Assembly (NCBI GenBank): GCA_050084515.1
Contig: CM114271.1
Location: 31,992,001-32,056,000, forward strand
Origin: Blasia pusilla
Lineage: Eukaryota
Length of the DNA: 64,000 nt
Direction of reading: 5' to 3'
This document shows positions 1-37,200 of the stretch, one piece after another. The position numbers and the translations under genes were made by a program. The notes beneath the pieces are model-generated. The model worked only from the letters and a program-made list of their open reading frames with translations. It was not told the DNA's origin and did not search any database. Each line of letters opens with the position of its first letter. The stretch's first letter is position 1.

Positions 1-291
1 GACTTGGTGTTTGACTTAGTGGGACTTTCAGGGGCAAGTATCAAAGGCGCCTGGCAGAGTGGCAGGAACATTCTCTGCCTCGAGGGAAGGCAGGAACTAT
101 TTGACCTTTGCAAGGAGGCAAAGGCAGAATACGAAAGGCTCGTTGGGGCGTACAACTCTCCACCGAAGCCGAGAGCTCCGGTTCCAGACCCACCCTTGGT
201 AGTGACTCCATCGTCACTTCCAACGATTCCAAAAATCGGGAGGGCAAGGCCGAAAGTAATTTTGCAAGAGCTCTCAGACGATGACGAGTGA
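1..291 (+). pseudogene. C-terminal fragment resembling the SAM-binding end of a beta-class N4/N6 DNA methyltransferase (truncated by window edge)
   Basis: DLVFDLVGLSGASIKGAWQSGRNILCLEGRQELFDLCKEAKAE aligns by eye with the N6_N4_Mtase C-terminal pattern DxVLDPFxGSGxTxxAAxxLGRxxIGIExxxxYxxxAxxR; nearby palindromes (519-619) match those of the 4942-15300 element. Confidence 0.5.
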
Positions 292-1091
292 GTTCAAAGA
301 ACTCAACGACCCAGCTTGACTGCAGCGTTTGGAGTAGGGAGTTTTTTGATGATGAGGCAAAAGATTTCATAGAATAGATCAAATGTACAGTTCCGAGCTT
401 TTTTCAGATGATATAAAGCATAAGATTTTTTCGAACGATGGTGGTGCTTGTAAAAGTTTGCTAAACATTTTTTGTCTTTTCGAATGTGATCGTCTATGTA
501 CTCCGCGGACTTCTATTTTGCAACCCGTCGGATTTCTCCTACTTGCAACTTTTCACTTTTTGACCACAACACCTTTTTACCACTTCCAGGCAACCTGTCG
601 GATTCCGACAGGTTGCCTGATCGGACTCTTTCCCTGTTGGTCCAACTTAAGAGGCAGTCTGGCAGGCTTCTTCCCTTGGCACCTTCCCCACAACTCGTAA
701 AGGCAGGCGTAGGCTTCTTTTCTTCTCTCAGACGTGTTGGATTCCTACTACCTGTGCGATTGCCATAATGGTATTACCGGGACGGAGCACATATTGATAC
801 TGGATGGGTGTCACATTGCAGAGCGTACAAGGTATACTGCCGAGGAAGGCGGTGGGACTCAAATCAGGTTACATGGGACCGTTATGGTGTACCTAGTGGG
901 GGGGGGGCCAAGGCTCTCGAATTTGCCAACTTTTTTCGATCCCCGTCTACAATCGGCCAGAGGAGCCACTTGTATCCCAGGACATTCCTTTGGTACTATC
1001 ACCGAGGAGAGTTAGGAGTAAATTTGTAGATGACGAGGCTGAAGAAATCCTAGACTAGGTCAAATGTACATTTCCGAGGTTCCTTCGGAGG

Positions 1092-4542: not shown

Positions 4543-4941
4543 TATTATCGCACGTCATAGAACTGGGTCTCATAGGCTAGGAATTTAGGAAGGACGATGG
4601 TTTAAAATTGATAGAAGTGAACGAATTTGTAGGTTATGTGACGCAGAAAATATTGAGGATGAAGAGCATGTGTTTGTTACATGTCCAAGGTATGAAGAAA
4701 TTAGACTAGTTCATAAAATAGATTTGGAAAATTTCTATTCTTTACTACAACTAGTGCCTTATGATTTAGGTTGTTATATTAGGGACGTCATCATCCATCG
4801 CTCAAGTGCTCTAGGCTCTAGCTAGGAGAAGGTCTTAAGGATTTTTTTCAAGTTCAGTGAATGAATGACTTGTAATGTGTTTTTCAGCCTTTTGACACTT
4901 TGGGTCCCACGGGCTTGATCTATTTACCATTTACCATTTAC
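4543..4941 (+). mobile_element. LINE 3'-end fragment joined 5'-to-5' with copy 1
   Basis: Matches the ORF2 zinc-finger end, 3'UTR and TTTACCA tail of the other copies. Confidence 0.93.
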
Positions 4942-6239
4942 TACAGAAACACAGGGAAAAGTAGTGCAACTTGCAACCCGTCAGAACTCGATGGGTTGTA
5001 GTCTATAGAGACTTGTTGGTGAATTTACAACCCGTCGCTTTCAAACGGATTGCAACACCGCAGACACAAGGTGTTGGGATCCGACGGGTTGCATGCACAT
5101 ATGCAACCCGTTGGAGCTTGACGGGTTGAATTTTTGTTAAACTAAATTCTTTGAATAAGAGAACTTACCTGGACTTAACTCGTCGCCGATCAGAGTGGAT
5201 ACCTGATCAGAGTGGATATCCATGATTGTGTTGTCCTCCACTTCAGCGACCTCTTCATGCAGTGAAGCTTGAAGAGCTCATCTTCGCTACCTCCAATGAG
5301 GACCAAGAAACAACCCCTGTCACTTAGATACGCGTCCGCAAAAGAAAACAACAACGCGATCTTGTCGTACGAAAGCGGGACATTCCAGTCTGGGACAGTG
5401 TCAGACGGATTGTTGTCCCACAAGAAAAACCTAGAAGGCAAATCCCAAGAATGAGGAGGTCCACCGCCACCTCCTCAACCACCCCATGCACCGTCTAGGG
5501 GGCGTGCCCGTTTCGAAGGAGTTTTCGTCCCAACACGGTCAATTTGTCGATGGCAAGTGTCGACTCCTGAGAACTGAAACTCAGCAGCTCATCGACAAGA
5601 TGAGTCAAGTGAACAAGGAAATTTGTCCTGGTGGTTATTTTCCTATATCTGCCCAATGATGATGGAGTGTATTCCACATCCTTATCTCCTCCCTCGAACG
5701 AACCACGCGCCTCCCGCTTCCGCTTCTCCCGAGTCTGCTGTCGTGTTGGACGAGGACCTGGTCCCGCCCTCTTGCCATGCTCGCACGGACGATTCCGCCT
5801 CTCGCCTCGAGAACTCAGCCTCTTTTCTGGAAGACTCCGCCTCGTAATTCCTCGATCCCCTCGCCTTCCTCAAACCCGCTGTGGATTTGTCTTTGGCGGT
5901 GACGACCTTGCCCACCAACTCCTCTATCTCAAGGGCTTGCTCCTCCGCATCTCCTTTGAAAAAATCTTCAGGTTGCACAAAGTTCGGAATGTTGTCCCTA
6001 CCTACGACCACTGCATCATACACCACACGTAGATTTTTTTTTGTAATGTCCTCTGGGTCGTTGAAGTCCAACCAGATTGGACAATTGTTAACCTCCTAGT
6101 CGGACATGCCTTGTCCCATCTCCATGTCGTACATAGAGAATGCCTCTCCATCAAGCGGAGAAGCCCACAATCTACAGGCTATAGGTAATTTTTGCCAAGT
6201 TCTTGCATTCTTACAATTGATGAGGTACATGTACCCCAT
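4942..6239 (-). pseudogene. 3' part of an intron-containing ParB/Srx-like + N4/N6-MTase-like gene of an unclassified element
   Basis: Joins in frame to 10913 after removing LINE copy 2 (QRVAQR-MGYMYL); VDLLIL/DLPS (frameshifted) followed by WNVP...FADAYLSDRGCFLVL resembles beta-MTase motif IV and downstream motifs; GTAAG donor at ~5168. Confidence 0.5.
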
Positions 6240-6242
6240 GTA

Positions 6243-6735
6243 CAAGCACAACCGAGTTATACACACGAAGTTGTGAGAGATTTGAGTTTCTGCACTTCTA
6301 GATTTGAGCATTTCAGATCTGAATCTTGCCGAGGCCATAACTTTGAGGTGGAGTGTCATATGAAGCTGAGATTTGGAGGCGACGTGAAGTATAAAGAGGC
6401 GCCCTAGCCCTCAGATTTGCAAGCACAACCGAGTTATACACACGAAGTTGTGAGAGATTTGAGTTTCTGCACTTTTAGATTTGAGCATTTCAGATCTGAA
6501 TCTTGCCGAGGCCATAACTTTGAGGTGGAGTGTCATATGAAGCTGAGATTTGGAGGCAACATGAAGTATAAAGAGGCGCCCTAGCCCTCAGATTTGCAAG
6601 CACAACCGAGTTATACACACGAAGTTGTGAGAGATTTGAGTTTCTGCATTTTTAGATTTGAGCATTTCAGATCTAAAGCTGAGATTTGGAGTCACGTGGA
6701 ATGTCTAGAGGCGTCTTAATCCTAGAAATTTCAAG
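6243..6735 (+). repeat. 177-bp tandem monomers (LINE 5'UTR)
   Basis: AAGCACAACCGAGTTATACACACG recurs with period 177; the third unit is internally deleted. Confidence 0.95.
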
Positions 6736-6817
6736 TACAACCAACTTCTAGAGCTGAAGTTGTGTGGTGTTGGAGATTCAATTATACTTTGTGGGATGGA
6801 GTGAAGTCGACTACAAG

Positions 6818-7574
6818 ATGACCACTCAAGACGAAATCTTGAATCTAGTGCAAGGGGTCTTGCATGAAGTGAAAGAGCTTCGACAAGAATTCAAGGTACA
6901 AACTTCTCAATTAAACCATGCACATATTCAAATCCGAGAGTTGAAGGCAACGCAAGAGGTTCTGAAGAAAGTGTTGAAAGATAGTTCTAGTGTGATGCTG
7001 GATCTTTCCAAATCTGTTGCGGATGTTCAAGAGAAGGCATCATCCTTGGTGATTACTCCCAATAGTTCAGGATTGCATGAGGTTGTTGAAACTTTAGAAG
7101 TGAAAATGAAATCTTATGCTGAAGCTACAAAGGTTGCTTATATCTCTTTCTGTCAAGAGCAAGAGATAGAAAAAGAAAACCAATTTGCCCAGTAGAAAGA
7201 ATGTGAGAATCTCAGTTTACCTGGAAACAGAGAGCGAAGAGGTGAAGAGTGTTGTCACCAAGTTCTTGGTTGATACACTTCATGTTCATAACCCGGACTT
7301 GGCTCAAGCTTTTCGTATTGGGAAAACGGGCACACAACCTCGTGCCATTGTAGTCAAGTTTGTTGATCAAACTCAACGTGATACTGCCATGGCTAACAAG
7401 GCCATTCTCAAAGGACGGAGGATATGGTTGATCCTTGATCTCACACCTCTACAAGTCGAAGCTAGGAGAAAGGAGCTTGCAAAGGTCAAAGAGGCTCAAG
7501 AAGCAGGTTTTATTGCTTATCTACGTGATGGGCGAGCAATTGTTACCCAGAGAAAAAGAGAGTTATCAACCTAG
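6818..7574 (+). pseudogene. LINE ORF1 (coiled coil + RRM-like RNA-binding protein), frameshifted
   Basis: MTTQDEIL... heptad-rich region, then RKNVRIS/PRAIVVKF/DLTP motifs typical of LINE ORF1. Confidence 0.85.
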
Positions 7575-7592
7575 CAATCCAAGAAGCTGAGA

Positions 7593-10500
7593 GTGTTGAT
7601 GTGGAATATACGAGGCCTTTCAACAACAAAGTATGTGAGTGCTCTACCAATTTGGGAGATGGTAGATATTATCAATATTGTGGAGACTTGGGAACATGAG
7701 AGCAATACTATTGCAGAGATGCAAGGGTTTACTTTGGTAGGATCGACATGGAATCAAAGAAGGCAACGGGCAGGAAGGGGTTATGGCGGTATTGCTACTT
7801 TCATAAGGTCTCAATTTCTACCTCTCATTCATCTAGAAGATCAAGATATCGGGGGTCAATATCATTGGCTACGTCTTGGTTTGGTTGGGGGATCTTATTG
7901 TTATTTGGCAGTTTGTTATTTTGCACCACTCTCCATGCCTATCTACTCAACACGCACTCACAATCGAAGTCAACCGTTCCATCGACTTATTGGGGATGTT
8001 CTCAAATATCAAAGCAAAGGTGAAGTCTTTCTAGTTGGAGATTTCAATGCTCGCACACGTACTGCTCAATTTACCCAATTCAGTGATTCCTTGATTTCTC
8101 CTCTTCTCGAAGAATATGAGGATGGTTTATGGTCTAGAATCTCTTTAGATCTTTCTACAAATCCTTTGACAGAGTATTTTTTAACCTTTGGAGCCACTTG
8201 TAATTTGAAAGTTCTTAATGGAACCTCTCATTTTCCCAACTCTCACTCCAATACGTGTTTCTCTCTCTGGCGCTTAGCACCATCGATTATCTTCTGTCCT
8301 CGCCTCACTGATAGCTCTCTTATCTCTACATTTGATATTCTAGAACCTCACCTGAATCAGATCATGCACTCTCTTGTTTACTCTCTCTTTGTCAAAAGAA
8401 ATTCTCTCTCGACATGTCAATCTATTTTAGCTTCTCCCAAGTTTCGCTTAGATCCTGGTAAAAAAGATCTTTATATGCTACATTTACAAGAACACTTGAC
8501 TCGCATTGTATGGAGCCATGATCCAAACACGGCAAGTATGCAACTAACGGAATTGCTCAAAAAAAAGTGCATCTAAGTTCTTTTCGCATGGGATAGAAGT
8601 GCTAGGAGGTCGCCTTTGTAATGGGTGGTTTGACTCGAATGCAAGCAAGCAAGGGCACGAGCAGCTGATAAATCTTTGGATATCCCAAGTCGGCTTATTA
8701 TGACGAGCCTTTACAAATACTTGGTGAAATCTAAGAAACGAGCTTTCTTTGGCGAAAACAAGAGTCCTTGACACGGGAGCTGCATGAGGACCCCAAATCA
8801 TTTTGGAGACGGTTAGTAGTACGGTCTTCAAAACCTATTCTTGATCCCAAGTCTTTGATATCTTTTGCCGAAAAGCTCTATTTCTTCCCGATGCTACGTC
8901 TATGCCACGTTGTGAAGGAATACGTGGCTTATTCTCTGAAGGAGAGGTGATGACTCAACTAAGAAGATTGGCGAATGGTAAATGTGAGGATTTGGATGGT
9001 CTTTCTATTGAACTTTTCAAGTGGGGAGGAGATTGTATTGGACCGATCCTCACCAAATTATTGGGTGATCTTTGCTATCTATGGTTTTCCTTCAACTGGT
9101 CGCACGGGAGATTGTCCCTATTCACAAATCAGGAAGGAAGGACTTGGTAACAAACTATCGCACTATCATGGTGGGTAGTGTTTTTGCCAAGTTGTTTGGG
9201 AAATTGGTGGAGTCGAAGTTGAGCACATGGACAGAGTCTTTCCAAAAGAGAGCACGGGTCCAAGCTGGTTTTCGTCCAACATACAACACCATCGATCATA
9301 TCTTGGCCTTGCGTGTTTTATGGGAGAAATCTAAGGGCAATGGAAAAGCTTTGTTTTGCGGCTTCATCGATTTCAAGAAAGCTTTTGATACTGTACCTCG
9401 CAAGCTCTTATGGGAAAGGCTGCAAGCCATTGGAGTTCCACAAAATCTCCTAGCAGCCGTGGCCACGTTATACCATTCCGTTCGGGCCAAGATCAAGGTT
9501 CACAAACTCAAGAGATCTTGAGCACCATTGAGTCATTCAAGGTTGCCCTCTCTCCCCTACACTTTTGGAGTTTTCATAGATGATATCGAAAAGTGGTTGG
9601 AGGAATGTGATAGTGAAGGGTCTAGCTTGGGGACTTTGTCATCAAAGCTCTATTGTATGCAGATGATATCATATTACTAGCACGTGATGGCATTAGTTTA
9701 CAAAAGCACCTCGACACTTTGGCAAGGTTTTGTACCCAGAATCAGATGGAGGTTAATATGGACAAGTCTAAAGTCATTATAGTGGGTACTAGATCCAAGT
9801 TCTCGTTCTTTTACAAAGGTCTACAATTAGAACAAGTGAAGAGTTACAAATATCTAGGCATCGATTTCTCTCATGATTATAGTTGGGCACTTTGCGTGCA
9901 AAAGAGAGTAGAAGCTGGTTACAAAACTCTATATTCATTTTTAAACCGGTGTAGAAGAGCTCATCTTGTGTCTTGGAGTCTAAGGAAATTCTTATTTAGG
10001 AGCTTAGTGTTGCCGGTGGTCTTATATGGGACCCAAGTTTGGGGCCCTAGTTGTAAGAAGACAGGTTGAGAGCGTGTGGAAAGAATGCAAAAGATCTTTC
10101 TACAAGAAGAATTGGGTGTAAGAAACCAAACTCCGTATGCTATTCTTCTTGCGGAAACAGGTTTTCTTCCTCTAGAAGCTGAAGCTCTTTACTTGACCAT
10201 CACTTACATCGCAAGGGTGAGATCTCTTGATGTTTCTCGCCTCCCTCATCAAGCTTTGCGAGCCACACGTTCCATAGGGTGGATGGCGGATGTGGTGACT
10301 TGGTCCTCAAAGTGGAATGTGGCAGAGCGCGATTGGGACTTGAAACCGATGGCCCTCTGTGAGCATCTACAGAAGCAATCTCTCAACATCATTTGGAGCA
10401 GTGCGGGCACCAAAATGGAGTTTTATCAACTTCATGTTAATCCTATGCTTGTATATTGTGAACAAGGATACCTACTTGCGGGGATCTCCACGTTCTTACG

Positions 10501-10785
10501 ACATATTATCGCATGTCATAGAATTGGGTCTCATAGGCTAGGAATTGAGAAGGACGATGGTTTAAAATTGATAGAAGTGAACTAATTTGTAGGTTATGTG
10601 ACGGAGAAAATATTGAGGATGAAGAGCATGTGTTTGTTACATGTCCAAGGTATGGAGAAATAAGACTAGCTCATAAAATAGATGTGGAGAATTTCTATTC
10701 TTTACTACAGCTAGTGCCTTATGATTTAGGTTGTTATATTAGGGATGTCATCATTCATCGCTCAAGTGCTCCAGGCTGTAGCTAG
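7593..10785 (+). pseudogene. LINE ORF2 (APE endonuclease - reverse transcriptase - CCHC finger)
   Basis: Motifs WNIRGL, ETW, GDFNAR, DFKKAFD, YADD, YKYLGI. Confidence 0.93.
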
Positions 10786-10912
10786 GAGAAGGTCTTAAGG
10801 ATCTTTTTCAGGGTCAGTCAATGAATGACTTGTAATGTGTTTTTCAGCCTTTTGACCCTTTGGGTCCCACGGGCTTGATCTATTTACCATTTACCATTTT
10901 ACCATTTACCAT

Positions 10913-13676
10913 CCTCTGGGCAACTCTTTGTCAAGATGACTCGGCGGCTTGGTCCTGAAGATCCCGCTTCTTCTTTGCAAAATCCCATTTTTTGGCGTCT
11001 ATTTCCTCATCGAGGTGTACTTGAGGGAGGATGTGATTCTTGAACATCATCCTGAATCCTGGGTTTTTTGTGGGCGTATTTATGATGTCATCAAGCCATA
11101 GTTCAAAATCTTCTGCAGCCTCTAGGTTTGCTTCCTCTAGAACTGGCTCAATCTTCTTTAGCTCCGCTTGAAGATCCACAAGCATAGACTTCCCGAGAAG
11201 GCGTAACGCATCCCAAAATGACCATTCCTGTAGCCAATGGGAGATCACTGGATGTAAAACTCCCAGAGGATGGTGTGCCGCCCGCTTTTGGGCCTCAGTG
11301 CCCTCCAGACTGATTTTCATTAGTCTGATTCGTCGAAACTTGGATATCCCAAACAGCGCAAATCCTGAGACACTTTCTCGCCGATCCGACCCTATGGATC
11401 TTCGTCTCTCTTCCGCTGGCGCTTGATCATTTCCTTGAGCTCCTTGTAAAACTCCGGGCCAAGTTCAGGGTTGAGAATCACAATGTATCAATGCATCTTG
11501 CTTGCAATGTACTTTGTAGCTACAAATACGGCAGCCTGAATAAACTTTGCACGTTCCGACAGAGACACGTTCTCCCTTTGCTCATGTTCCAACGAAGCAC
11601 TCTTCTTGGCGGCCAAGATCTTGGACCAACATAGGATTGTGACAGTAGCATCTTGGGAAATGAAGGTATTTGCCCAAGTCTTCTTTTTTATTTGAGCTCC
11701 CTTCGCGAGCATCTAATTCACCATACCGTCGCCCAAGAATCCCTTGTACTCTACCGGGTGCGTCGTAAGCACCTTCTTCATCCTATCGCAATCTTGGATC
11801 CAATGGTAGGTGACGTTCCCCTCCGATACAATCTTGCACATCCAAACACAAAGTACGAACACTGCAAGCTATCGGATTCTTGCAACCCGTCGGACTCCGA
11901 CAAGTCGCAATTCTGTCAACCCATGGGAGTCGAAATGGTAACACAGGGATAAATGTTGCAACCCGTTGAAGTTTGACTGGTCGCAACACTTATCTTTGTG
12001 TTACACTTATTGCAACACTCTCAAAATTTTTAAAGAGAATTACAAATAAATCATGCATTCATTTTTCCACCCGTCGATTTTGTGCTTGGCCACCAGGCAA
12101 CCCGTTGGACTCCAACGGTTTGCTTGACTATGACATTGACCACAAACAGGATGGTCGCAATAGACTCAAATCTTTAAGCTTTCCAATTATTCAAACCGTC
12201 TGACTCCGACGGGTGAAGCAATCAAACTTAAGGAAGAGGAAACTTACATATTCATCGCATGCATTGCCATTTCCACCGTTGCCATGTGATGAGGAAATGG
12301 ATGGAGCACAACTGCCTTCACGCAAAAATGCGCCTCCAATGAATTTGGGCGCTCCTCTGCAAACTGCGTCCATGCCATGTACCTGTGGTTTCCATCCCAG
12401 ATGAAGAAGTAAAGGTTCCGCATCCAGCTAAATTTGGTTCCTTCAATCGCTCTTCTGAACTCTTGATCTCTCATCCTCCAGAAAGTATCCAGCGCCTCCA
12501 AGTCCTCTTCCGTCACCAACGCTTGGGTTCGATGTTCATCGTGAGGCTGAACATAGAACGGAGGGAAGCTGTCGACATAGGATGCAGTCGTTGCCAACTA
12601 TTTGAGCTTTGCAATGTCCTCCTCTGACCGAATTTTTGCGGACATACTCCATTGTCCGCAATCGACAGAGTGGAATTCTCGGGGCGTTCTGGCCCTACAT
12701 CAGTGCCATCTGCTTAACAACCTGCCATAATGCGGACCAAGTCAATAACATGCAGTGTTTTGCCAATGAATTGCATAATGAGCCTTCACATAACTCAAAT
12801 TTCTTACCCATCAAAGATTGGGTTGGTATCCAGGCCCGCCAACTGCTCTGGGACAGCACCTGGCAAGTCCACGGGAAACTCATGGATCCCATAAAGGTCA
12901 ATTTCTTCCACAGGGCTCAAAGATGACAAGGACTCTTCTCTTGCTTCTTTAGAGATGTCCACCATCTCCACACTTGCTGTCCTCATGACCTCATCGTCCG
13001 TCACTTGAACTTCGGTCGTTTCCTCAGCCGATTTTTGATTCATGGTGTCCCCAGACCTCATGGGAGACATTTCCTGCATCTCAACACTCTCTGTTGGACG
13101 GGCAGGGATTTCTTCAATGGTGATTGCTTTTTCTCTTCGAGCTTTCGCCAATTCTGCTCTCCTCACAGAGGCGTCAAGACGCTTCTTCTTGCGTTTCTCG
13201 TTCGCGACTCTTTTCTACAAGGCCTTCCATGCCTCAGCCTCGGAATTTTGCTTAGCGAGCTCCTCCAGAACACATTTTGCTAGAACCTCTTGCCTGTGCA
13301 TATCTGCTTCCCTTTCCCGCTCCTCTATTTCTTGTTGCCTTATCTCATTCGCCAAACGAGGACCTGGAGATGGTGACGCAGGAGTCCTGATGGACTTGGG
13401 AGTGATGCTCCCTACCTTGGTTGCTTATGTTTTCTTTCTCAACATGGTGCACGTTGGGTCAGTTCTACCTCCTCGACTGTCTAATATGCTCATGTGCACG
13501 ATAGATCCCTCAAAGCGTTTCGTGATGAAGCGTCGTGACCCTCCATCGGATGGGCTTGCCGAAATCCAAATCTGGAAGCGTTGGTTGCTGGATCGTCGTA
13601 ACCTTTCAACGAAGTGATGATGTAACCGAGTTTGGAAGCGAAAAGGTAACGTCAACTGCTGCGAGGAAGAGCACAT
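10913..13676 (-). pseudogene. 5' part of the ParB/Srx-like domain gene (coiled-coil N-terminus), multi-exon, with premature stops
   Basis: IPLCRLRTMEYVRK..EEDIAKLK..ATTASYVDSFPPFYV and YFFIWDGNHRYMAW resemble the ParB/sulfiredoxin fold (DGxHR); GTAAG donors at ~12807 and ~12248; stops mostly consistent with CAA/CAG/CGA to TAA/TAG/TGA. Confidence 0.6.
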
Positions 13677-15022
13677 GAAATTGCGAAATGAAAAACAGAG
13701 ATGATCGAAACCTCAACCTTTTATAATTTTCGAGCCGTTGAGTTGACCATTGGGTCGTTGGGTCGTACCGACGGCGATGTGTAGGCCGTTATGGATCTTT
13801 GCACGTGGGAACCCGGGCAACCCGTCGGTCTCCGACAAGTTGCACGCTTCCCTCGTCTTGGGGATGTAGGGCGAGTTACCGAGGCAACCTGTTCGAGACC
13901 GACGGATTTCACAGATCCCTCGTCCCACCATCGGCAAATCTGCACTTTTGGTTTGCATGGTTCATTGGACAAGAGAAATCGACGCGAGATCCAAAAGGGA
14001 AAGCGAGGTTAGGTGCTTTTCAAACCCATCGCAGTCCCCAACGGATAGCCGTAGCAAATCCATGTGATGTCTCGTGTCTTGATGTTAGCAAATCCCGACT
14101 CCAATCACATAGGTCAGACAGGCAGGGGCTACCAACCCAACGGACTCCGACGGGTTGCAAGTTGCACTCGGACTCTTACAGAAGATGGTACTCCGTGGCT
14201 TTGCAACCCACGTGTATGAGTCCCAAAATTTGCAACCCGTCAGACTCCGACAAGTTGCAACAGGATTGAATCCATTCTTTCAGACAATCTCACCTACCAA
14301 ACAGCATCTTGTCAGTCAAATTCTCTCAGGAGAATAACGGTCACTATTCACTATAAATTAAATATTCTCATCCTCATTCTTATTCTTATTCTCATTCTCC
14401 ACTCGGTGGAATCATTTGGGAATGGATAATTATGTGAAACTCACTTGTGGCAGTCATCTAACTGCCCTTCCTCAATCAGAACTAGTTCGACCGCAAGCTC
14501 GTGAATGTTACATACCAGTGGATGAAAATTTCCTTTTACTGCCATTTCTTCTCCAAATTTTAACAATCTTTGTTTCCAAGGATGTTAGGGTGGACGGTAC
14601 GGAGGACGTTGTAGGTGAGACAGTCCAGCCAGTGATAGCAGACCGTTAAGTATGGAATCTCCTACCTCGTAGAGGTAGGAGATTCTGAAAGAGATACTTT
14701 TTTTTTAAGAGAGTTTCCGTTGGGTTGAAGAGAGGAAATTTTTGTGTCACTTTTTTTGCACTTTTCTGCTCAGTTCTTAAGCACTCCCACAATTTTCTTT
14801 CTCTCTTCCACATTTTGGCAATCCATCTGAGTCCGACGAGTTGCAAATTGCAAAAAATTTAAAATACTGAAAAATTAGTGGAATCATAACTGTGGAACTA
14901 ATCACTTTTTCCATCCAAGGTATGGAAAAAATCTATCATTTTCCCTGGGCTGAATAGAGTTCACGCTCAAAGCGAAGGTTCTAGAAAAATGAAAGTAAAA
15001 TCTAAAACCTCATTTTGCATCC

Positions 15023-23400: not shown

Positions 23401-24261
23401 GGTGCAAAATAACAAACTGCCAAATAACAATAAGATCCCCCAGCCAAACCAAGACGTAGCCAATGATATTGGCCCCCGATATCTTGATCTTCTAGATGAA
23501 TGAGAGGTAGAAATTGAGACCTGATGAAAGTAGCAATATCGCCATAACCCGTTCCTGCCCGTTGCCTTCTTTGATTCCATGTCGATCCCACCAAAGTAAA
23601 CCCTTGCATCTCTGCAATAGTATTGCTCTCATGTTCCCAAGTCTCCACAATATTGATAATATCTGCCATCTCCCAAATTGGTAGAGCACTCACATACTTT
23701 GTTGTTGAAAGGCCTCGTATATTCCACATCAACACTCTCAGCTTCTTGGATTGCTAGGTTGATAACTCTCTTTTTCTCTGAGTAACAATTGCTCGCTCAT
23801 CGCGTAGATAAGCAATAAAACCTGCTTCTTGAGCCTCTTTGACCTTTGCAAGCTCTTTTCTCCTAGCTTCGACTTGTAGAGGAGTGAGATTAGGATCCAA
23901 CCATATCCTTCGTCCTTTGAGAATGGCCTTGTTAGCCATGGCAGTATCACGTTGAGTTTGATCAACAAAATTGACTAGAATGGCACGAGGTTGTGTGCCC
24001 GTTTTCCCAATGCGAAAAGCTTGAGCCAAGTCCGGGTTATGAACATGAAGTGTATCAACCAAGAACTTGGTGACAACACTCTTCACCTCTTCGCTCTCTG
24101 TTTCCGGCAAACCTGAGATTCTCACATTCTTTCTACGCGCAAATTGGTTTTCTTTTTCTATCTCTTGCTCTTGACAGAAAGAGATATGAGCAACCTTTGA
24201 AGCTTCAGCATAAGATTTCATTTTCACTTCTAAAGTTTCAACAACCTCATGCAATCCTGAA
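20408..24261 (-). mobile_element. LINE copy 4, 5'-truncated in ORF1
   Basis: Tail ~20408-20440; ORF2 20534-23735; ORF1 part 23754-24254. Confidence 0.96.
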
Positions 24262-25141
24262 CAACTGAGTTATACACACGAAGTTGTGAGAGATTTGAGT
24301 TTCTGCACTTCTAGATTTGAGCATTTCAGATCTGAATCTTGCCGAGGCCATAACTTTGAGGTGGAGTGTCATATGAATCAGAGATTTGGAGGCAACGTGG
24401 AGTATAAGGAGGCGCCCTAGCCCTCAGATTTGCAAGCACAACCGAGTTATACACACGAAGTTGTGAGAGATTTGAATTTCTGCACTTCCAAATTTGAGCA
24501 TTTCAGATCTGAATATTTCCGAGGCCATAACTTTGAGGTGGACTGTCATATGAAGCTCAGATTTCAAGGTAACGTGGAATATAAAGAGGCGCTCTAGCTC
24601 TTAGATTTGCAAGCACAACCGAGTTATACACACGAAGTTGTGAGAGATTTGACTTTCTGCACTTCTAGATTTGAGCATTTCAGATCTGAATCTTTCCGAG
24701 GCCATAACTTTGAGGTGGAGTGTCATATGAATCTGAGATTAGGAGGCAACGTGGAGTATAAAGAGGCGCCATAGCCCTCAGATTTGCAAGCCTAATTGAG
24801 ATATACACACGAAGTTGTGAGAGATTTGAGTTTCCGCACTTCTAGATTTGAGCATTTCAGATCTGCATCTTTCCGAGGCCATAACTTTGAGGTGGAATGT
24901 CATATGAATGTGAGATTTGGAGGCAACGTGGAGTCTAAAGAGCCACCCTAGCCCTCAGATTTGCAAGCACAATCGAGTTATACACACGAAGTTGTGAGAG
25001 ATTTGAGTTTCTGCACTTCTAGATTTGAGCATTTCAGATCTGAATCTTGCCGAGGCCATAACTTTGAGGTGGAGTGTCATATGAATCTGAGATTTGGAGG
25101 CCACGTGGAATGTCTAGAGGCGTCATAATCCTAGAAATTTC
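24261..25141 (+). repeat. 177-bp tandem monomers x5
   Basis: Period 177 measured between AAGCACAACC-like starts. Confidence 0.95.
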
Positions 25142-30295: not shown

Positions 30296-32325
30296 AGTGC
30301 CACATTTGGCTCAGAGAGAGCGCATTGTGCGACATGCCCATGAGGAGTTGGGACATTTTGGGGTAAAGCGTACGTATAGCTTACTCCTTGGCCAGTATTG
30401 GTGGCGTGGCATGCATACTCAGGTGCAGCAGTTTGTGTCACGTTGTATGGTTTGTGACCGGGTGAGGGCATCATTCAATGCCCCTACACCACAATTACAC
30501 CCCTTGCCTATTATGGGGTTGGGTTACCGTTGGAGTGTGGACTTTGCGGGACCGTTACCGTTGACTGTACAACATCATCGATATGTGTTGGTGATGGTGG
30601 AGCACTTCTCCAAGTGGATTGAGTTGGTGGCATTACCGGACAAGGCAAGTGAGGAAACGGCGTATGCGTTTCTTGATAGAGTGCTTAGTCATTTTGGTGC
30701 ACCAACTGAAGTGCTGACCGACCAGGGTACAGAGTTTCAGGGTGAATTTCAGGTCTTGTGTGACAAGGCGTTGATTGATCATCGGACCACGTCTCGAGAT
30801 CATCCGAGGCGGATGGTTTGGCTGGCGTGTGGTTCGGGACGGTGAAGAGGGCATTGCGCAAATATGGCCTCTGAAGGGCATCTTGGAGACCTAGGATATT
30901 CAGCTGCCATGGTTAGCCATGGGGTATAGGTTGATCGCCAAGCATCCTTGGCTTCCTTCTCATCTTATTTTTGTTATACGGCCGAGATCCGGACTTGCCG
31001 CAGAATTCGTCGGGAGTCTAGTGAGGTGGTGAACCTTGATGACCCAGAGATGTGGATGAGGATGTGTTCTCAGCGAGCGGAGCTCTTTCGGAGAGTTATG
31101 CCAACAGCCTTTGAGAATCTTGCCATTGCTCAACACAGGGATACGTTGCGGTATGCAACCATTCGGGGTGGAGGTTATCGACCATCGATTCGTAGGTTCC
31201 ATGTGGGGGACTATGTCTATTTGCAGCAGATTGCACCGACAACGTTGGATATGACGGCGGGCCGCACTATTTTACGAGTGCGCGAGGTGTTAGCTTCTGG
31301 AGTTCTCATGTTGGAGGGTCGTGATGGAGTTGTTTGGAAGGACCATGTGCGTAATTGTGCGCCATGTCATCTTCCAAATGTGGATGGTAGTGTTAACCCA
31401 AGCTTAGCCATGATACGTGCTAGTTTGAGGTGCATGTTGTGTGGGTCTGTTGGTAACGCAGCTCGTATGTTGGTGTGTGATCGGTGTTCTAGGGGTTGGC
31501 ACATGATGCGTTTGACTCCACGTATGGATGTTGTTCCTACTGGAAGGTGGGTTTGTCCTCGATGTACTTAGGAGAGGTAGATGACTTGATCTTTGCATGA
31601 TATGGATTACAGATGTGCGACTAACAATGGGGCAACCTAGCACCCGGCCTTCTGATTCGGGCACCCAAGAAGGAGTATAGCATGTAGTAGATGTATAGGG
31701 CTACCTAGGAGTTAGAGGGACCTAACCACCAATTAGGGGGCGAGTTGTGGTACACTTGTGTTTGTGGATGCTCTCGTCTATGTTATGTATGTATGTGAGT
31801 ATGGTATGTCAGCGATGTATGTTGTATGACGATGTGGATTCGCACGACAGCTGTCATGACCATACGGATTATGTCGTAGAGTATAGTGTGCTAGTAGAGG
31901 CCATTCCTTATGTAGGACCGTAGTGGCTTGGTAGAGATGCGGTTTCATACATAGGGTTGGGGGTTACTCAATTGGGGGTGACTTTCCCAGTAGGGCCCGC
32001 TCTTAGGTTGGAGGATATAAGGTGGAGTGCACTCAAAGAACAGTCAGTTCTTTGAGTTGAGCTTGTTGCGTTGGGAGTTAGCCTTGGTAGTGAGTAGAGC
32101 TCTTGGCTATGGTGTTTCCCGCAAGCTTCGACCTAGATTCTCCCATCGTGGAGTGGGTTTGGCTCGATTGTATGTGATTCTATACGTGTTTTATGACAGT
32201 AGGTCTTTCACGGATTTCAGTTGTGGTACACTTGTGTTTGTGGATGCTCTCGTCTATGTTATGTATGTATGTGAGTATGGAATGTCAGCGATGTATGCTA
32301 TATGACGATGTGGATTCGCACGACA
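30296..32325 (+). mobile_element. Gypsy-type family 1, 3' half: integrase + PHD finger, PPT and A-B-A terminal repeats
   Basis: HEELGH..C..C zinc finger, VDFAGP, TDQGTEF; C-terminal CxxC..CxxC..H..C..W.CxxC PHD-like ending at 31571; purine tract ~31731-31744; ends in ...GCACGACA. Confidence 0.9.
31744..32325 (+). repeat. Split direct repeat terminus A(31744-31849)-gc-B(31852-32219)-A(32220-32325)
   Basis: Two near-identical 106-bp A units; the 368-bp B unit matches 61957-62324 (minus). Confidence 0.93.
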
Positions 32326-32723: not shown

Positions 32724-34215
32724 CGTCTTTGCACCGTACTTGCTACTTTATGGCCGAGAGCCAGATTTACATGCGGCCATTCGTCAAGATGTTGGTGAGG
32801 TGCTGGACCTTGATGACCCAGATGTATGGATGCGAGCATGTTCTCATAGGGTTGAATTGTTTTGGAGAGTGATGCCCATGGCGTTCGAGAACTTGGCGAT
32901 TGCGTAGCATTAGGATACGTTGAGGTATGCGACTATTCGGGGTGGTGATTATCGACCAACTATCCGGAGGTTTCATCAAGGAGATTATGTCTACTTGCAG
33001 CAGACGGCATCGACGACGTTGGATGTGATTGCAGGGCGCACTATCCTGAGAATGCGTGACGTTTTGCCATCCGGTGTTCTCTTGCTGGAGGGACACGATG
33101 GTATGGCATGGAAGGACCATGTGCGTAATTGTGCGCCATGTCACCTTCCTAACATTGATGGTACAGTAGATCTGAGCTCAACAGTAGTTCTTGTAGGCTT
33201 GCGTTGTATGTTGTGTGGTTCTGCTCGTGCTGCGGCCACGATGCTAGTATGTGATGGATGTTCGAGAGGTTGGCATATGGCATGTCTGACGCCACCTTTC
33301 ACTAAGGTTCCTCGAGGACAATGGATGTGTCCCAGATGTACATAGAGGAGATATTAGGTAGGTTTCGATTCCAACTTTTTCTGTGACATGGATGATTGGA
33401 AGGCGACTAACGATGGGGCCACATGAGCACCCGGCCTTTATGCTCTTAGCATCCTAGAGATGTATGTCATGGTAGGTAGGGATAGATGGCTATCTGGAGT
33501 TAGAGGGACCTAACCACCAGCTAGTGGGGTGATTGGAGATATTTTGGTACTTCTCGCCTCTGTGTATGGATGTCATGAGTTAGCATGGGATCGTGTGTGT
33601 TTGTGTGTGTGTTCGATGACAGCGATGTATGTTGTGTAGCGATGTGTACACGCACGACACTTGTCATGATTATTAGGATAGATCAGTGGGATCTAGCAGA
33701 ATGTCTGCACGAATAGTGGAGGACAAGCCCATGATGTCGAGGATGATCTGTTGAAGCCCAGGGAAACCTGAGAGAGCAGGTTTCCCCTTCGTTTCGGCTC
33801 ATTTGGAGCCATATTGATGATCTTGCTATTTTAGGTAAGTACCATTTTGAGTATCTGATCGACTTTCTATTATTGGTACATGGTCCTTGACCTCCTACAT
33901 CAGGTCAAGAGCCAGGGAGATGACTTGGGAGAATAGGTTACCATAGAGAGAGCTTGGGAGAGGGGAGGGGTTTACCTCAAGGAGAGAGAGCTTGAGAGCT
34001 CATTCTCTCTTTATTGAACCTCTTAGCATGAGGCGTTGGAACTATGGTCTTGCTTGCCTTGTGTGTGTAACCCAAGCCTCTCATTAGGAGAGTGGTTTTG
34101 GTTTGACATTGAGAGAGACATATGAGAGTGCACACATGTGAGAACTATGGTATTGTGAGAGAGATTGGATCTTATTTTATTGGAGATATTTTGCTACTTC
34201 TCACCTCTGTGTATG
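32724..34215 (+). mobile_element. Gypsy-type family 2, 3' end: integrase C-terminus + PHD, A'(33532-33659)-ct-B'(33662-34178)-A'(34179-, cut by LINE)
   Basis: ORF 32920-33345 with an intact C4HC3 PHD; the same CACGACA-nn-TGTCATGA junction as family 1. Confidence 0.88.
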
Positions 34216-37200
34216 AAGCACAACCGAGTTATACACACGAAGTTGTGAGACATTTGAGTTTCTGCACTTCTAGATTTGAGCATTTCAGATCTGAATCTTG
34301 CCGAGGCCATAACTTTGAGGTGGAATGTCATATGAATCTGACATTTGAAGGCGACGTGGAGTATAAAGAAACGGCCTAGCCCTCAGATTTGCAAGCACAA
34401 CCAAGTTATACACACGAAGTTGTGAGAGATTTGAGTTTCTGCACTTCCAGATTTGAGCATTTCAGATCTGAATATTCCGAGACCATAACTTTGAGGTGGA
34501 GTGTCATATGAAACTGAGATTTCAAGGTGACGTGGAGTATAAAGAGGCTCCCTAGCCCTCAGATTTGCAAGCACAATTGAGATATACACACGAAGTTGTG
34601 AGAGATTTGAGTTTCCGCACTTCTAGATTTGAGCATTTCAGATCTGAATCTTTCCGAGGCCATAACTTTGAGGTGGAATGTCATATGAATGTGAGATTTG
34701 GAGGCAACGTGGAGTCTAAAGAGCCGCCCTAGCCCTCAGATTTGCAAGCACAATCGAGTTATACACACGAAGTTGTGAGAGATTTGAGTTTCTGCACTTC
34801 TAGATTTGAGCATTTCAGATCTGAATCTTGCCGAGGCCATAACTTTGAGGTGGAGTGTCATATGAATCTGAGATTTGGAGGCCACGTGGAATGTCTAGAG
34901 GCGTCATAATCCTAGAAATTTCAAGTACAACCAAGTTCTAGAGCAGAAGTTGTGTGGTGTTGGAGATTCAATTATACTTTCTGGGATGCAGTGAAGTCGA
35001 CTACAGGATGACCACTCAAGACGAAATCTTGAATCTAGTGCAAGTGGTCTTGCATGAAGTGAAAGATTCTCGACAAGAATTCAAGGTACAAATTTCTCAA
35101 TTAAACCATGCACATATTCAAATCCGAGAGTTGAAGGCAACGCAAGAGGTTCTGAAGAAAGTGTTGAAAGATAGTTCTAGTGTGATGCTGGATCTTTCCA
35201 AATCTGTTGCGGATGTTCAAGAGAAGGCATCATCCTTGGTGACTACTCCCAATAGTTCAGGATTGCATGAGATTGTTGAAACTTTAGAAGTGAAAATGAA
35301 ATCTTATGCTGAAGCTACAAAGGTTGCTCATATCTCTTTCTGTCAAGAGCAAGAGATAGAAAAAGAAAACCAATTTGCCCGTAGAAAGAATGTGAGAATC
35401 TCGAGTTTACGGAAAAGAGAGCGAAGAGGTGAAGAGTGTTGTCACCAAGTTCTTGGTTGATACACTTCATGTTCATAACCCGGACTTGGCTCAAGCTTTT
35501 CGTATTGGGAAAACGGGCATACAACCTCGTGCCATTCTAGTCAAGTTTGTTGATCAAACTCAACGTGATACTGCCATGGCTAACAAGGCCATTCTCAAAG
35601 GACGGAGGATATGGTTGGATCCTGATCTCACACCTCTACAAGTCGAAGCTCGGAGAAAGGAGCTTGCAAAGGTCAAAGAGGCTCAAGAAGCAGGTTTTAT
35701 TGCTTATCTACGTGATGGTCGAGCAATTATTACCCAGAGAAAAAGAGAGTTATCAACCTAGCAATCCAAGAAGCTGAGAGTGTAGATGTGGAATATACGA
35801 GGCCTTTCAACAACAAAGTATATGAGTGCTCTACCAATTTGGGAGATGGCGGATATTATCAATATTGTGGAGACTTGGGAACATGAGAGCAATACTATTG
35901 CAGACATGCAAGGGTTTACTTTGGTAGGATCGACATGGAATCAAAGAAGGCAACGTGCAGGAAGGGGTTATGGCGGTATTGCTACTTTCATCAGGTCTCA
36001 ATTTCTACCTCTCATTCATCTAGAAGATCAAGATATCGGGGGTCAATATCATTGGCTACGTCTTCGTTTGGTTGGGGGATCTTATTGTTATTTGGCAGTT
36101 TGTTATTTTGCACCACTCTCCATGCCTATCTACTCAACACGCACTCACAATCGAAGTCAACCGTTCCATCGACTTATTGGGGATGTTCTCAAATATCAAA
36201 GCAAAGGTGAAGTCTTTCTAGTTGGAGATTTCAATGCTCGCACACGTCATCGCTCAATTTACCCAATTCAGTGATTCCTTGATTTCTCCTCTTCTCAAGA
36301 ATATGAGGATGGTTTATGGTCTAGAATCTCTTGAGATCTTTCTACAAATCCTTTGTGAGTATTTTTAACCTTTGGAGCCACTTGTAATTTGAAAGTTCTT
36401 AATGGAACCTCTCATTTTCCCAACTCTCACTCCAATACGTGTTTCTCCTCTCTGGCGCTAGCACCATCGATTATCTTCTGTCCTCGCCTACGATAGCTCT
36501 CTTATCTCTACATTTGATATTCTAGAACCTCAGCCTGAATCAGATCATGCACCTCTCTTGTTTACTCTCTCACTGTCAAAGGAAATTCCTCTCTCGACAT
36601 GTCAATCTATTTTAGCTTCTCCCAAGTTTCGCTTAGATCCTGGTAAAAAAGATCTTTATATGCTACATTTACAAGAACACTTGACTCGCATTGTATGGAG
36701 CCCTGATCCAAACACGGCAAGTATGCAACTAACGGAATTGCTCAAAAACAGTACATCTAAGTTCTTTTCGCGCCACTAGGATAGAAGTCCTAGGAGGCTG
36801 CCTTGTAATGGGTGGTTTGACTCTGAATGCAAGCAAGCAAGGGCACGAGCAGCTGATAAATCTTTGGATATCCCAAGTCGGCTTATTATGACGAGCCTTT
36901 ACAAATACTTGGTGAAATCTAAGAAACGAGCTTTCTTGCGGCGAAAACAAGAGTCCTTGACAAGGGAGCTGCATGAGGACCCCAAATCATTTTGGAGACG
37001 GTTAGTAGTACGGTCTTCAAAACCTATTCTTGATCCCAAGTCTTTGATATCTTTTGCCGAAAAGCTCTATTTCTTCCCCGATGCTACGTCTATGCCACGT
37101 TGTGAAGGAATACGTGGCTTATTCTCTGAAGGAGAGGTGATGACTCAACTAAGAAGATTGGCGAATGGTAAATGTGAGGATTTGGATGGTCTTTCTATTG

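Follow-up and report, generated by a model that had tools for sequence, protein, structure and literature searches.

A decayed copy of a high-copy plant gene with predicted ParB/Srx-like and methylase-like domains in Blasia pusilla

Introduction

How does a stretch of plant DNA come to resemble ParB/Srx proteins at one end and beta-class N4/N6 DNA methylases at the other, and is it a gene, part of a transposon or an accident of sequence? The question is raised by 64,000 nucleotides of Blasia pusilla (GCA_050084515.1, contig CM114271.1, positions 31,992,001 to 32,056,000; hereafter the window), in which a sequence-only reading had proposed a horizontally derived, intron-bearing gene of this kind, split by a LINE and carried by a mobile element. 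That reading took amino-methylases of this class to be rare in plants, a background that needs amending, as transposon proteins combining ParB and N4/N6-methylase domains are already published for a eukaryote, Ectocarpus, in the account given there (PMC12477816), and a beta-class 4mC methylase is already described from the liverwort Marchantia (bioRxiv 10.1101/2021.02.12.428880). Our literature search returned no report of such two-domain proteins in land plants. Here we show that positions 4942-13424 of the window, on the minus strand, are a damaged copy of a plant gene that is repeated many times over, and consider what its intact relatives may do.

Results

The locus belongs to a protein family. 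A search with a 117-aa ParB-like piece of the window returned 89 proteins at E <= 1e-3, the best at 6e-13, and a profile built from 15 proteins of the liverwort Riccia sorocarpa matches six colinear minus-strand pieces of the window. The family's proteins are about 1200 aa long, multicopy in Riccia and present in two Adiantum ferns. Motif resemblance by chance, with no real gene beneath it, might have been suspected from reading frames that are broken throughout and from single window fragments of which none has a Pfam match at E <= 1; but significant, colinear matches to a family with full-length members already refute it, and we give it practically no credence.

The gene is interrupted by a nearly full-length LINE (LINE 2) encoding APE and RT domains. 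Homology to the window's other LINE copies begins at 6243/6244 and runs out between 10907 and 10916, within a (TTTACCA)n tail. We removed 6243-10912 and read 11464..10913 joined to 6242..5682 on the minus strand, with stops written as X. The rejoined frame gave one unbroken alignment to the profile of the 15 Riccia relatives (profile 462-701, residues 23-292, domain E 6e-9) that runs across the junction at residue 184, while the piece upstream of the LINE, taken alone, reaches profile 462-552 only (E 7e-7). Excision of the LINE restores a single minus-strand frame, just as had been proposed.

Because of this insertion, a missing 3' end, at least five in-frame stops and at least four frameshifts, the copy in the window is dead, a pseudogene that makes no protein. 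A stop at 13212-13214 separates the two ORFs of the N-terminal low-complexity region; the A5 stretch at 12633-12637, where 14 of 36 genomic reads lack a base at 12633, carries a +1 frameshift that parts IPLCRL.. from ..EEDIAKLK; and a TAG at 12598-12600 precedes ..PFYV...FFIWDGNHRYMAW. In the first part of the middle region the frame is broken by stops at 11713-11715, 11488-11490 and 10931-10933 and shifts once near 11400-11460; the second part has an in-frame TAG at 6096-6098, and a frameshift near 5450 divides VDLLIL from DLPS. The motifs quoted in the sequence-only reading are all present, but spread over different frames. The gene is cut off at 4942, so that its target-recognition and motif-I parts are absent. 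A SAM-binding-like end at 1-150 had been noted as matching it, and the likeness of 1-291 to the family's motif-I part stands (hhalign E 1.3e-4, probability 54%), with a SAM loop, DLVGLSG, weaker than the DFAGGWG of the family; but this sequence lies on the plus strand and therefore belongs, as the 3' end, to a second copy that runs convergently; it does not supply the end that the minus-strand gene lacks. The parts of the locus are collected in Table 1.

Table 1. Parts of the broken gene copy and of its surroundings, in window coordinates
Feature	Position	Strand	Basis
3' end of second, convergent copy: motif-I-like DLVFDLVGLSGAS...CLEGR, acidic tail, stop 292-294	1..291	+	hhalign
Palindromic repeat cluster downstream of second copy; 590-616 a perfect 13+13 palindrome	520..616	.	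sequence
3' fragment of same LINE family, 5'-truncated, abutting the truncated gene	4550..4941	+	4640-4939 94.7% identical to LINE 2 tail
Sequence past possible GTAAGT donor (about 5168); palindromic repeats 4973-5128	4942..5189	-	sequence
Methylase-like domain, first half: VAVDLLIL / (frameshift) / DLPS...VPDWN...LSDRGCFLVLIGG; degenerate motif IV and next strand	5190..5494	-	hhalign
Middle region, part 2 (..YMGYMYLIN...CRLW...EVNNCPIWLD..), then K/E/R-rich linker	5682..6242	-	alignment across LINE junction, to profile position 701
Inserted LINE (APE + RT), (TTTACCA)n tail	6243..10912	+	domains; homology to other window LINE copies
Middle-region coding sequence, part 1 (NVTYHWIQD..., NPELGPEF..., HWLQEWSFW...)	10913..11833	-	profile 306-552
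Intron with palindromic repeats; donor AT|GTAAGT at 12247/12246	11834..12246	-	relatives' models, RNA gap, spliced reads
ParB/Srx-like exon: IPLCRL ... VRK ... PFYV ... FFIWDGNHRYMAW ... AMHAMNM	12247..12694	-	profile 189-304, E 1.2e-17
Putative N-terminal K/E/R-rich low-complexity region, two ORFs	12804..13424	-	position only
Palindromic repeat cluster upstream of gene; units 13817-13843, 14133-14158, 14232-14258, 14833-14844	13817..14844	.	sequence

Intact relatives consist, in order, of a low-complexity N-terminus, a ParB-N/Srx-fold domain, a helical middle region of ~600 aa that has no known family, a K/E-rich linker and a C-terminal PF01555-like domain. The corresponding N-terminal region of the window gave no match in the family profile search, and the Riccia relatives likewise begin with ~150 low-complexity residues. 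Full-length Riccia proteins measure 1191-1244 aa, and two of them, P0092 (1207 aa; IPLCRL at 176, WDGNHR at 270, DCLYLDLPTG at 959 and DFAGGWG at 1131) and P0100 (1244 aa), each carry the ParB box, the motif-IV site and motif I. The first two occur together in 9 of 167 proteins, and motif I as well in 3. The sequence-only reading had staked itself on searches matching both domains and on the two halves being linked in other copies; ParB-like and methylase-like matches were obtained, and the linkage exists in single proteins of another species.

For the N-terminal domain, the proposed likeness to ParB/Srx is borne out by the predicted model of the family domain, which has the alpha/beta fold of ParB-N (PF02195 superfamily), although none of the Foldseek E-values reaches 0.001. 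The helices that follow (residues 154-249) were modelled at lower confidence and gave no informative structural alignment. Profile libraries were silent here: Pfam, PF02195 included, had no match at E <= 1 for ten window pieces and seven long relatives, nor for the ParB-bearing parts of five further family proteins, and PHROGs and NCBIfam had none for P0152. A lead came from the ESM-Atlas, in one cluster (score 0.94) of which 11% of members have ParB_N. In both ParB and Srx the central strand is followed by a G-x-x-R box, which reads GERR in the former and GCHR in the latter. The family has DGNHR in 76 of the 89 proteins in which the box region is present, with N119 invariant and G118 and H120 conserved at >= 90% in A2, and the window carries FFIWDGNHRYMAW. 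Model and nearly invariant box together support a ParB-N/Srx-type fold in intact relatives.

The C-terminal part had been read as a beta-class N4/N6 methylase, and several searches agree. Of 16 Riccia C-terminal members, 10 match PF01555 at E <= 0.01, the strongest at 1.9e-7, and five Riccia proteins already bear a PF01555 annotation; most matches fall just below the Pfam cut-off (23.7-26.2 bits in three examples, against 26.7). Among PHROGs, families named 'DNA methyltransferase' are matched with E as low as 4.2e-9, and an ESM-Atlas feature search returned PF01555 clusters in 30 of 30 matches (scores 0.94-0.95, 178-190 shared features). These best profile and feature matches are to phage PF01555 families, a likeness that is the one indication bearing on the possible horizontal origin put forward in the sequence-only reading. 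The profile matches are limited to the last 50-65 residues, around motifs I-II (PF01555 positions 165-218 of 221). None of the pieces taken from the window matches PF01555 at E <= 1, and 5190..5494 aligns to the Riccia C-terminal alignment (hhalign probability 93.8%, E 1.8e-7). A profile search of solved structures gave no significant match (DpnA E 0.81, CcrM 0.82), and an AlphaFold model of the P0093 C-terminal domain, built from 16 sequences, was unusable (pLDDT 34.8). Motif order is that of the beta class, motif IV preceding motif I (in P0092, DLPTG at 964-968 and DFAGGWG at 1131-1137), and CcrM aligns colinearly, if weakly, at both. The glycine-rich SAM-binding loop of such methylases reads D-P-F-x-G-S-G. 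In its place the family has DFAGGWG, which aligns to DPFMGSG of DpnA and DPFFGVG of CcrM. Of 28 members in which the region is present, 17 retain this loop together with the acidic strand end that follows, and the others have close variants.

The degenerate catalytic motif noticed in the window (DLPS for DPPY) proves to be a property of the whole family. Among 34 proteins none has the tetrad (D/N/S)PP(Y/F/W); the site reads DLPS in 11, DMPT in 8, DLPT in 7, DMPS in 4, DLSS in 2, and DMSS and DGRA in 1 each. We infer from the motif that catalysis may have been lost. An alternative is that intact members are active DNA amino-methylases, producing 4mC or 6mA, which are guided by the ParB-like domain to mark their own element. 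The retained SAM loop and acidic strand end would fit such an activity, as would the conservation of the replacement site itself (D[LM][PS][ST]G), which suggests selection on the pocket. Yet the residues lost from every tetrad include the first proline and the aromatic, which in amino-methylases position and stack on the target base. A marking function has been proposed in print for the Ectocarpus Sola1 accessory protein (PMC12477816), and in Marchantia sperm a beta-class 4mC methylase is functional, but the active Marchantia enzymes retain TSPPY (bioRxiv 10.1101/2021.02.12.428880), a motif that is not among the family's tetrads. We consider active methylation by intact members unlikely.

At least one intron is real, on thin RNA support. 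The short gene models of relatives stop exactly at the 12247/12246 donor; intron bins 11843-12214 have zero RNA in three RNA runs, as against 30-112x in the DNA run; and two X15 reads join 12251 to 11833. The window copy has no clean in-frame AG as acceptor. Of the GTAAG introns in the sequence-only reading, this donor is supported and the one at ~12806 is doubtful: a second frame runs without a stop across the supposed intron, and indels at 12799-12810 occur in other copies, suggesting that it is probably a frameshift instead. Spliced RNA from close copies exists at a low level.

Copy number was sampled by mapping about 1% of one genomic run on a 2.8-kb stretch of the locus. Of the 3501 reads recovered, 3226 were 90-95% alike to it and only 13 were >= 99%, and they covered 30 of 30 bins, including the intron and upstream non-coding parts; this supports roughly 10^2 genomic copies, 90-95% alike, that is, a high-copy repeat. 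A host gene family that has expanded, whether domesticated or never mobile, with this locus as one of many pseudogenes, would account for the introns, the low-level transcripts and the lack of a transposase beside the gene in the window. Likeness of 90-95% that extends over non-coding parts is, however, the pattern of a repeat burst and not of a gene family. Riccia also has family gene models on at least eight different contigs and dozens of fragmentary ones across all its large contigs, and the known algal relatives of the architecture, as described, sit in transposons (PMC12477816). A host family is, on this evidence, quite improbable.

Discussion

The reading we favour, and regard as likely, is that the locus is the decayed remnant of one member of a high-copy repeat, a gene whose intact members function broadly as outlined below. 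By analogy, a DNA-type mobile element, as yet undelimited, very probably carries the gene as cargo. We saw no transposase in the window, nor any terminal repeats or target-site duplication that would mark a carrier, and neither its 1-16 kb stretch nor its 40.8-55.4 kb stretch contains a transposase-like ORF, so the cargo reading rests on copy number and analogy; since the locus is truncated by LINEs, the absent transposase proves little.

In intact members, the ParB-like domain would bind the element's own DNA, possibly at the 27-nt palindromes found in clusters within the gene and around it, in introns and flanks, whose arms change together. The methylase-like domain may bind SAM and/or DNA, and probably does not act as a canonical base amino-methylase, with D[LM][PS][ST] replacing the tetrad. 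A bolder joint reading, which we put forward as a long shot, is that land plants from liverworts to ferns harbour a mobile element that recognises itself by means of a system assembled from prokaryotic components. A ParB-type nucleotide-switch clamp would load at the palindromes as at parS; the fused beta-class methylase would have been rebuilt at its pocket (D[LM]P[ST]) to take on another task, perhaps a new substrate or a SAM-sensing, DNA-binding role; and the lineage might be the source pool of the liverwort 4mC methylases.

The window copy is only a fossil, and the value of the observation lies in the family. It extends the ParB plus methylase architecture to embryophytes (one liverwort, two ferns and Blasia pusilla), where it occurs at high copy number and with a catalytic motif rebuilt family-wide. 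This offers a tractable case for asking how transposons recognise or protect themselves with prokaryotic DNA-binding and modification modules, and whether the non-5mC DNA marks of early-diverging land plants have a mobile-element origin.

The family shares its domain order with the ParB-N plus PF01555 fusions of prokaryotes and phages, and a BFVD match is to the 'DNA methylase' of Mycobacterium phage Vincenzo. Those fusions keep DPPY-type motifs. They are ~400-500 aa long, with adjacent domains and no introns, whereas the plant proteins have a helical spacer of ~600 aa and a degenerate tetrad. Among eukaryotes, Iyer et al. describe adenine-methylase genes of phage or ParB-locus origin, some tied to transposons, including a chlorophyte/chytrid 'Dam + ParB-type HTH' family and haptophyte clade 6 methylases from phage ParB-terminase loci; their ParB-fused family is Dam-type, a different methylase group from the PF01555-like domain here, and land plants are not named in that account (PMC4738411). 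MpDN4MT1a/b, the sperm 4mC methylases of Marchantia polymorpha, likewise place a prokaryote-type N4/N6 methylase of beta order in a bryophyte lineage, but these are two host genes in tandem, expressed specifically in sperm, and the preprint's account of them mentions no ParB domain (bioRxiv 10.1101/2021.02.12.428880).

Closer parallels come from algal transposons. In the Plavaka elements of the red alga Bostrychia moritziana, ParB-like and DNA-methylase domains are also transposon cargo, and inverted-repeat arrays adjoin the ParB-bearing gene much as palindromes cluster at ours; the two domains are, however, described on separate proteins with other partners, PAG2 (N6-adenine methylase and SET) and PAG3 (ParB-like and 2OG oxygenase), and the carrier is a known DDE transposon (bioRxiv 10.1101/2025.02.11.637652). 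The closest system is Sola1-1_Ec32 of the brown alga Ectocarpus. Its gene lies opposite the transposase in a defined 21.5-kb Sola1 element, while the land-plant carrier is undelimited; but going by the paper's description, its 1104-aa accessory protein, proposed to bind and mark its own element, has the same two-domain architecture, ParB-like and N4/N6 methylase, at a similar length, a combination within one protein of ~1100 aa that P0092 and P0100 also display, and both are eukaryotic genes of the intron era tied to repeated DNA (PMC12477816).

A gene interrupted by a LINE and beyond coding

The window is repeat-rich eukaryotic DNA of 41-50% G+C, in which a single LINE family is represented by nine or more copies or fragments, alongside Ty3/Gypsy- and Copia-like pieces. 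The LINE that splits the gene has endonuclease and reverse-transcriptase domains, and its likeness to the other copies starts at 6243/6244 and stops at 10907-10916, within its (TTTACCA)n tail. The principal observation of the sequence-only reading, that this LINE interrupts what was a single gene, is confirmed by a read-through in which 6243-10912 was excised, stops were written as X, and the product was aligned to a profile built from 15 Riccia relatives. This gave one alignment spanning the junction (residue 184), over profile positions 462-701 with a domain E of 6e-9; the piece upstream of the LINE, taken alone, aligned to position 552 and no further. The individual profile matches (see table) are colinear with the window.

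The motifs quoted in that reading are all in place, on minus-strand ORF fragments from about 13.4 kb down to about 5.2 kb, and are spread over different frames. On this strand the frame shifts by +1 between IPLCRLRTMEYVRKNS and ..SEEDIAKLK, within a run of five A (12633-12637); a TAG at 12598-12600 comes before ..SFPPFYVQPHDE...YFFIWDGNHRYMAW...AMHAMNM; and VAVDLLIL differs in frame from DLPSRFFLWDNN...LSDRGCFLVLIGG, the shift lying near 5450. The 3' part of the gene past about 5170 is gone, and LINE fragments start at 4941. Because of its stops, frameshifts, LINE insertion and lost 3' part, the window copy cannot encode the family protein; it is a fossil. The SAM-binding-like end at 1-150 had been matched to this gene, and here the reading has to be revised: the piece at 1-291, which resembles the motif-I region of the family (hhalign probability 54%, E 1.3e-4), is on the plus strand and therefore belongs to the end of another copy, convergent with this one. 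Except for this match at the protein level, no second DNA copy of the gene was found in the window.

Features of the gene and of other elements in the window
Feature	Position	Strand	Remark
Riccia profile match	12247-12597	-	profile 189-304
Riccia profile match	11716-11868	-	profile 306-341
Riccia profile match	11491-11712	-	profile 354-402
Riccia profile match	11395-11487	-	profile 426-455
Riccia profile match	10934-11464	-	profile 462-552
Riccia profile match	5193-5474	-	profile 919-968
In-frame stops, homologous parts	12598-12600, 11713-11715, 11488-11490, 10931-10933, 6096-6098	-	
Further possible in-frame stops	12695-12697, 5492-5494	-	
Frameshifts	12633; about 11400-11460; 5700-5870; about 5450	-	5700-5870 is linker
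Palindrome cluster	520-616		downstream of second copy
Palindrome cluster	4973-5128		after last remaining exon
Palindrome cluster	11882-12123		in intron
Palindrome cluster	13817-14844		upstream of gene
LINE 5' end with repeats	6243-6680		self-hits
LINE 5' ends with repeats, other copies	24261-24864, 34216-34651, 41724-42201, 54102-55316		self-hits
Integrase-PHD finger	30930-31571	+	PF00628, E 1.5e-8
Integrase-PHD finger	32914-33345	+	PF00628
Integrase-PHD finger	50764-51084	-	PF00628
C5-cytosine DNA methylase segment	59907-60668	-	adjoins RT 60669-61340 (-); directly after RNase H-like stretch

A protein family that links both halves

Pfam gave no match at E <= 1 to single window fragments, and a word-based search found no longer relatives of the 117-aa piece at 12244-12597. 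An exhaustive phmmer search with this piece returned 89 proteins at E <= 1e-3, nine of them at <= 1e-10, the best at E 6e-13 with 36% identity. Thirty representatives were looked up: 14 came from the liverwort Riccia sorocarpa, three from the ferns Adiantum capillus-veneris or A. nelumboides, and 13 were metagenome, ENA or Logan records. Searches with a full-length and with a C-terminal member yielded 24 and 26 proteins respectively, with Riccia in every case; these members sit on contigs of eight different lengths, and the family is therefore multicopy there. No relative was confirmed in metagenome contigs scanned with two family proteins, P0152 and P0142.

That the two halves belong together is borne out by single Riccia proteins that carry both. 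Full-length members uniting them are P0092 (1207 aa), P0100 (1244 aa) and P0027 (1191 aa); in P0092, IPLCRL starts at 176, WDGNHR at 270, DCLYLDLPTG at 959 and DFAGGWG at 1131. A ParB box and a motif-IV-like site (the position of the catalytic tetrad) occur together in 9 of 167 collected proteins, three of which also have motif I, the glycine-rich SAM loop.

The N-terminal and C-terminal domains

None of the sequence profiles tried on the N-terminal domain (Pfam, PHROGs, NCBIfam) names it, and an ESM-Atlas feature search gave leads only, with ParB_N in 11% of one cluster. For the family member P0152, AlphaFold with an alignment of 67 sequences yields a confident model (pLDDT 82.7; 135 residues >= 90), whose top Foldseek matches in the PDB are ParB, Noc, sulfiredoxin, PadC, KorB, a serine kinase and SbnI, with probabilities of 0.84-0.98 in most rows and a best E of 3.7e-3, none reaching 0.001. 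A viral structure library returned ParB-like proteins at E > 0.001, including phage ParB-methylase fusions and giant-virus proteins. DGNHR is near-invariant: of 89 proteins with the box, 76 show this sequence, and N119 is invariant in family alignment A2. We accept a ParB/Srx fold as predicted by the model; the proposed ParB/Srx identity thus stands as to fold, and by sequence no match to Pfam ParBc was found.

For the C-terminal domain several lines point to PF01555-like (N6_N4_Mtase) methylases. Ten of 16 Riccia C-terminal members match PF01555 at E <= 0.01 (best 1.9e-7), three C-terminal examples score 23.7-26.2 bits, slightly below the cut-off of 26.7, and a precomputed match exists on five family members. 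Among PHROGs, families labelled 'DNA methyltransferase' match with E values as low as 4.2e-9, and the 30 ESM-Atlas neighbours of the family protein P0093 are without exception PF01555 clusters, most of them from phages, at scores of 0.94-0.95 and 178-190 shared features. These methylase profile matches, which uphold the N4/N6-methylase-like character proposed for this half over its motif-I end, are confined to the last 50-65 residues, from the SAM loop through the strand that follows it. A profile search of solved structures with family alignment A1 places DpnA and CcrM first at E about 0.8, which is suggestive of direction only, and the AlphaFold model (16 sequences, one species) has a pLDDT of 34.8; the C-terminal fold therefore stays putative. 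The order of motifs, IV-like before I, is that of beta-class enzymes, and hhalign places the window piece 5190-5474 on the motif-IV region (probability 93.8%, E 1.8e-7). The degeneration of DPPY suspected in the window copy proves to be family-wide, since the tetrad is present in none of the 34 proteins with the site (DLPS 11, DMPT 8, DLPT 7, DMPS 4, DLSS 2, DMSS 1, DGRA 1). The SAM loop is retained, as DFAGGWG in 17 of 28 and as near variants in the remainder.

Copy number, intron and transcripts

Of a genomic Illumina run under the same species label, about 1% was mapped to 10913-13700. There were 3501 reads, of which 3226 matched at 90-95% likeness, 262 at 95-99% and only 13 at >= 99%; they reach all 30 bins, with a summed depth of about 24-356x that peaks over the DGNHR exon. 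Taking those 13 reads to represent the locus itself would put the family very roughly at 10^2 copies. One base is missing at 12633 in 14 of 36 genomic reads, so that many copies lack the window copy's frameshift there; these read ..VRKIRSEEDIAKLK.. and align well to relatives. Over the 44-nt segment 12955-12998, in the N-terminal low-complexity region, genomic depth climbs to about 356x. The reads that diverge at its two sides number 395 and 337, and the segment belongs to a commoner repeat.

Three RNA runs are sparse, at 0.2-2.7x in the exon bins flanking 11843-12214, and none of them has RNA inside the four bins of that interval, where the DNA run gives 30-112x. Two X15 reads connect 12251 with 11833, and the short gene models of many relatives stop exactly at ..MH..N. 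Taken together, the RNA gap, the junction reads and these model ends support an intron whose donor lies at 12247/12246, albeit on thin RNA evidence. Of the GTAAG introns proposed earlier, that at about 12806 is doubtful, because a second frame is open across it and indels occur at 12799-12810 in other copies. A 38-nt RNA pile-up at 12634-12671 reaches 17-21x in the three runs. It was rejected as evidence for expression of the window copy: its reads match in part only, they continue into a diverged homologue of the window on one side and into unrelated sequence on the other, and pair orientation is opposite to that of the exon reads. It seems to stem from a fragment of another family copy that is carried by a well-expressed transcript and apparently reversed relative to the exon reads.

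Palindromes and other elements

With up to 2 mismatches allowed, the window has 21 instances of the half-site GCAACCCGTCGG, where shuffled sequence gave 2.4 on average and never more than 6; 18 of the instances lie within 1-15 kb in four clusters. The palindromic unit is about 27 nt, hairpin-forming and GCAACCCGTCGGACTCCGACGGGTTGC-like. Units 590-616 and 12097-12123 show paired arm changes from the consensus (C>T with G>A), and dyad symmetry is therefore retained. Strand-switch joints are numerous in genomic reads over 11881-12251, so this region differs among copies. The palindromes may be the element's own parts or small insertions.

The 5' ends of the LINE family have tandem repeats of about 177 bp (self-hits at offset 177), and its 3' tail is an unusual (TTTACCA)n in place of poly(A). 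LTR retrotransposon integrase C-terminal regions end in a PHD finger (PF00628) where a chromodomain is usual. A Ty3/Gypsy-like pol frame includes a stretch of C5-cytosine DNA methylase that scores above the PF00145 cut-off (E 1.4e-9) and contains GCPCQ and ENV motifs; it looks like a retrotransposon-borne DNMT, and such DNMTs have been reported in some algae.

Comparison with known systems

An origin from the methylase of DIRS-type retrotransposons was dropped in view of the gene's intron, the lack of an RT or recombinase next to it, and its match to PF01555. In the openly searchable literature we found no land-plant report of the ParB and methylase architecture. Proteins of this kind have already been published from algae, a likeness drawn from their descriptions. 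Bostrychia Plavaka elements are described with PAG2, an N6-adenine methylase with SET, and PAG3, a ParB-like domain with a 2OG oxygenase, which inverted-repeat arrays adjoin (bioRxiv 10.1101/2025.02.11.637652); Iyer et al. (PMC4738411) trace some eukaryotic methylases to phage ParB-terminase loci and also list a Dam family of chlorophytes and chytrids that is fused to a ParB-type HTH; and bdelloid rotifers possess N4CMT (PMC8885841). What is new is a high-copy family in land plants whose catalytic tetrad is replaced throughout. The sequence-only interpretation was incomplete, yet largely right: the horizontal origin and the carrier element that it proposed are putative, and the copy seen here is a fossil. 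Marchantia has active sperm 4mC methylases with a TSPPY motif (bioRxiv 10.1101/2021.02.12.428880), whereas in the family described here the tetrad is absent in 34/34.
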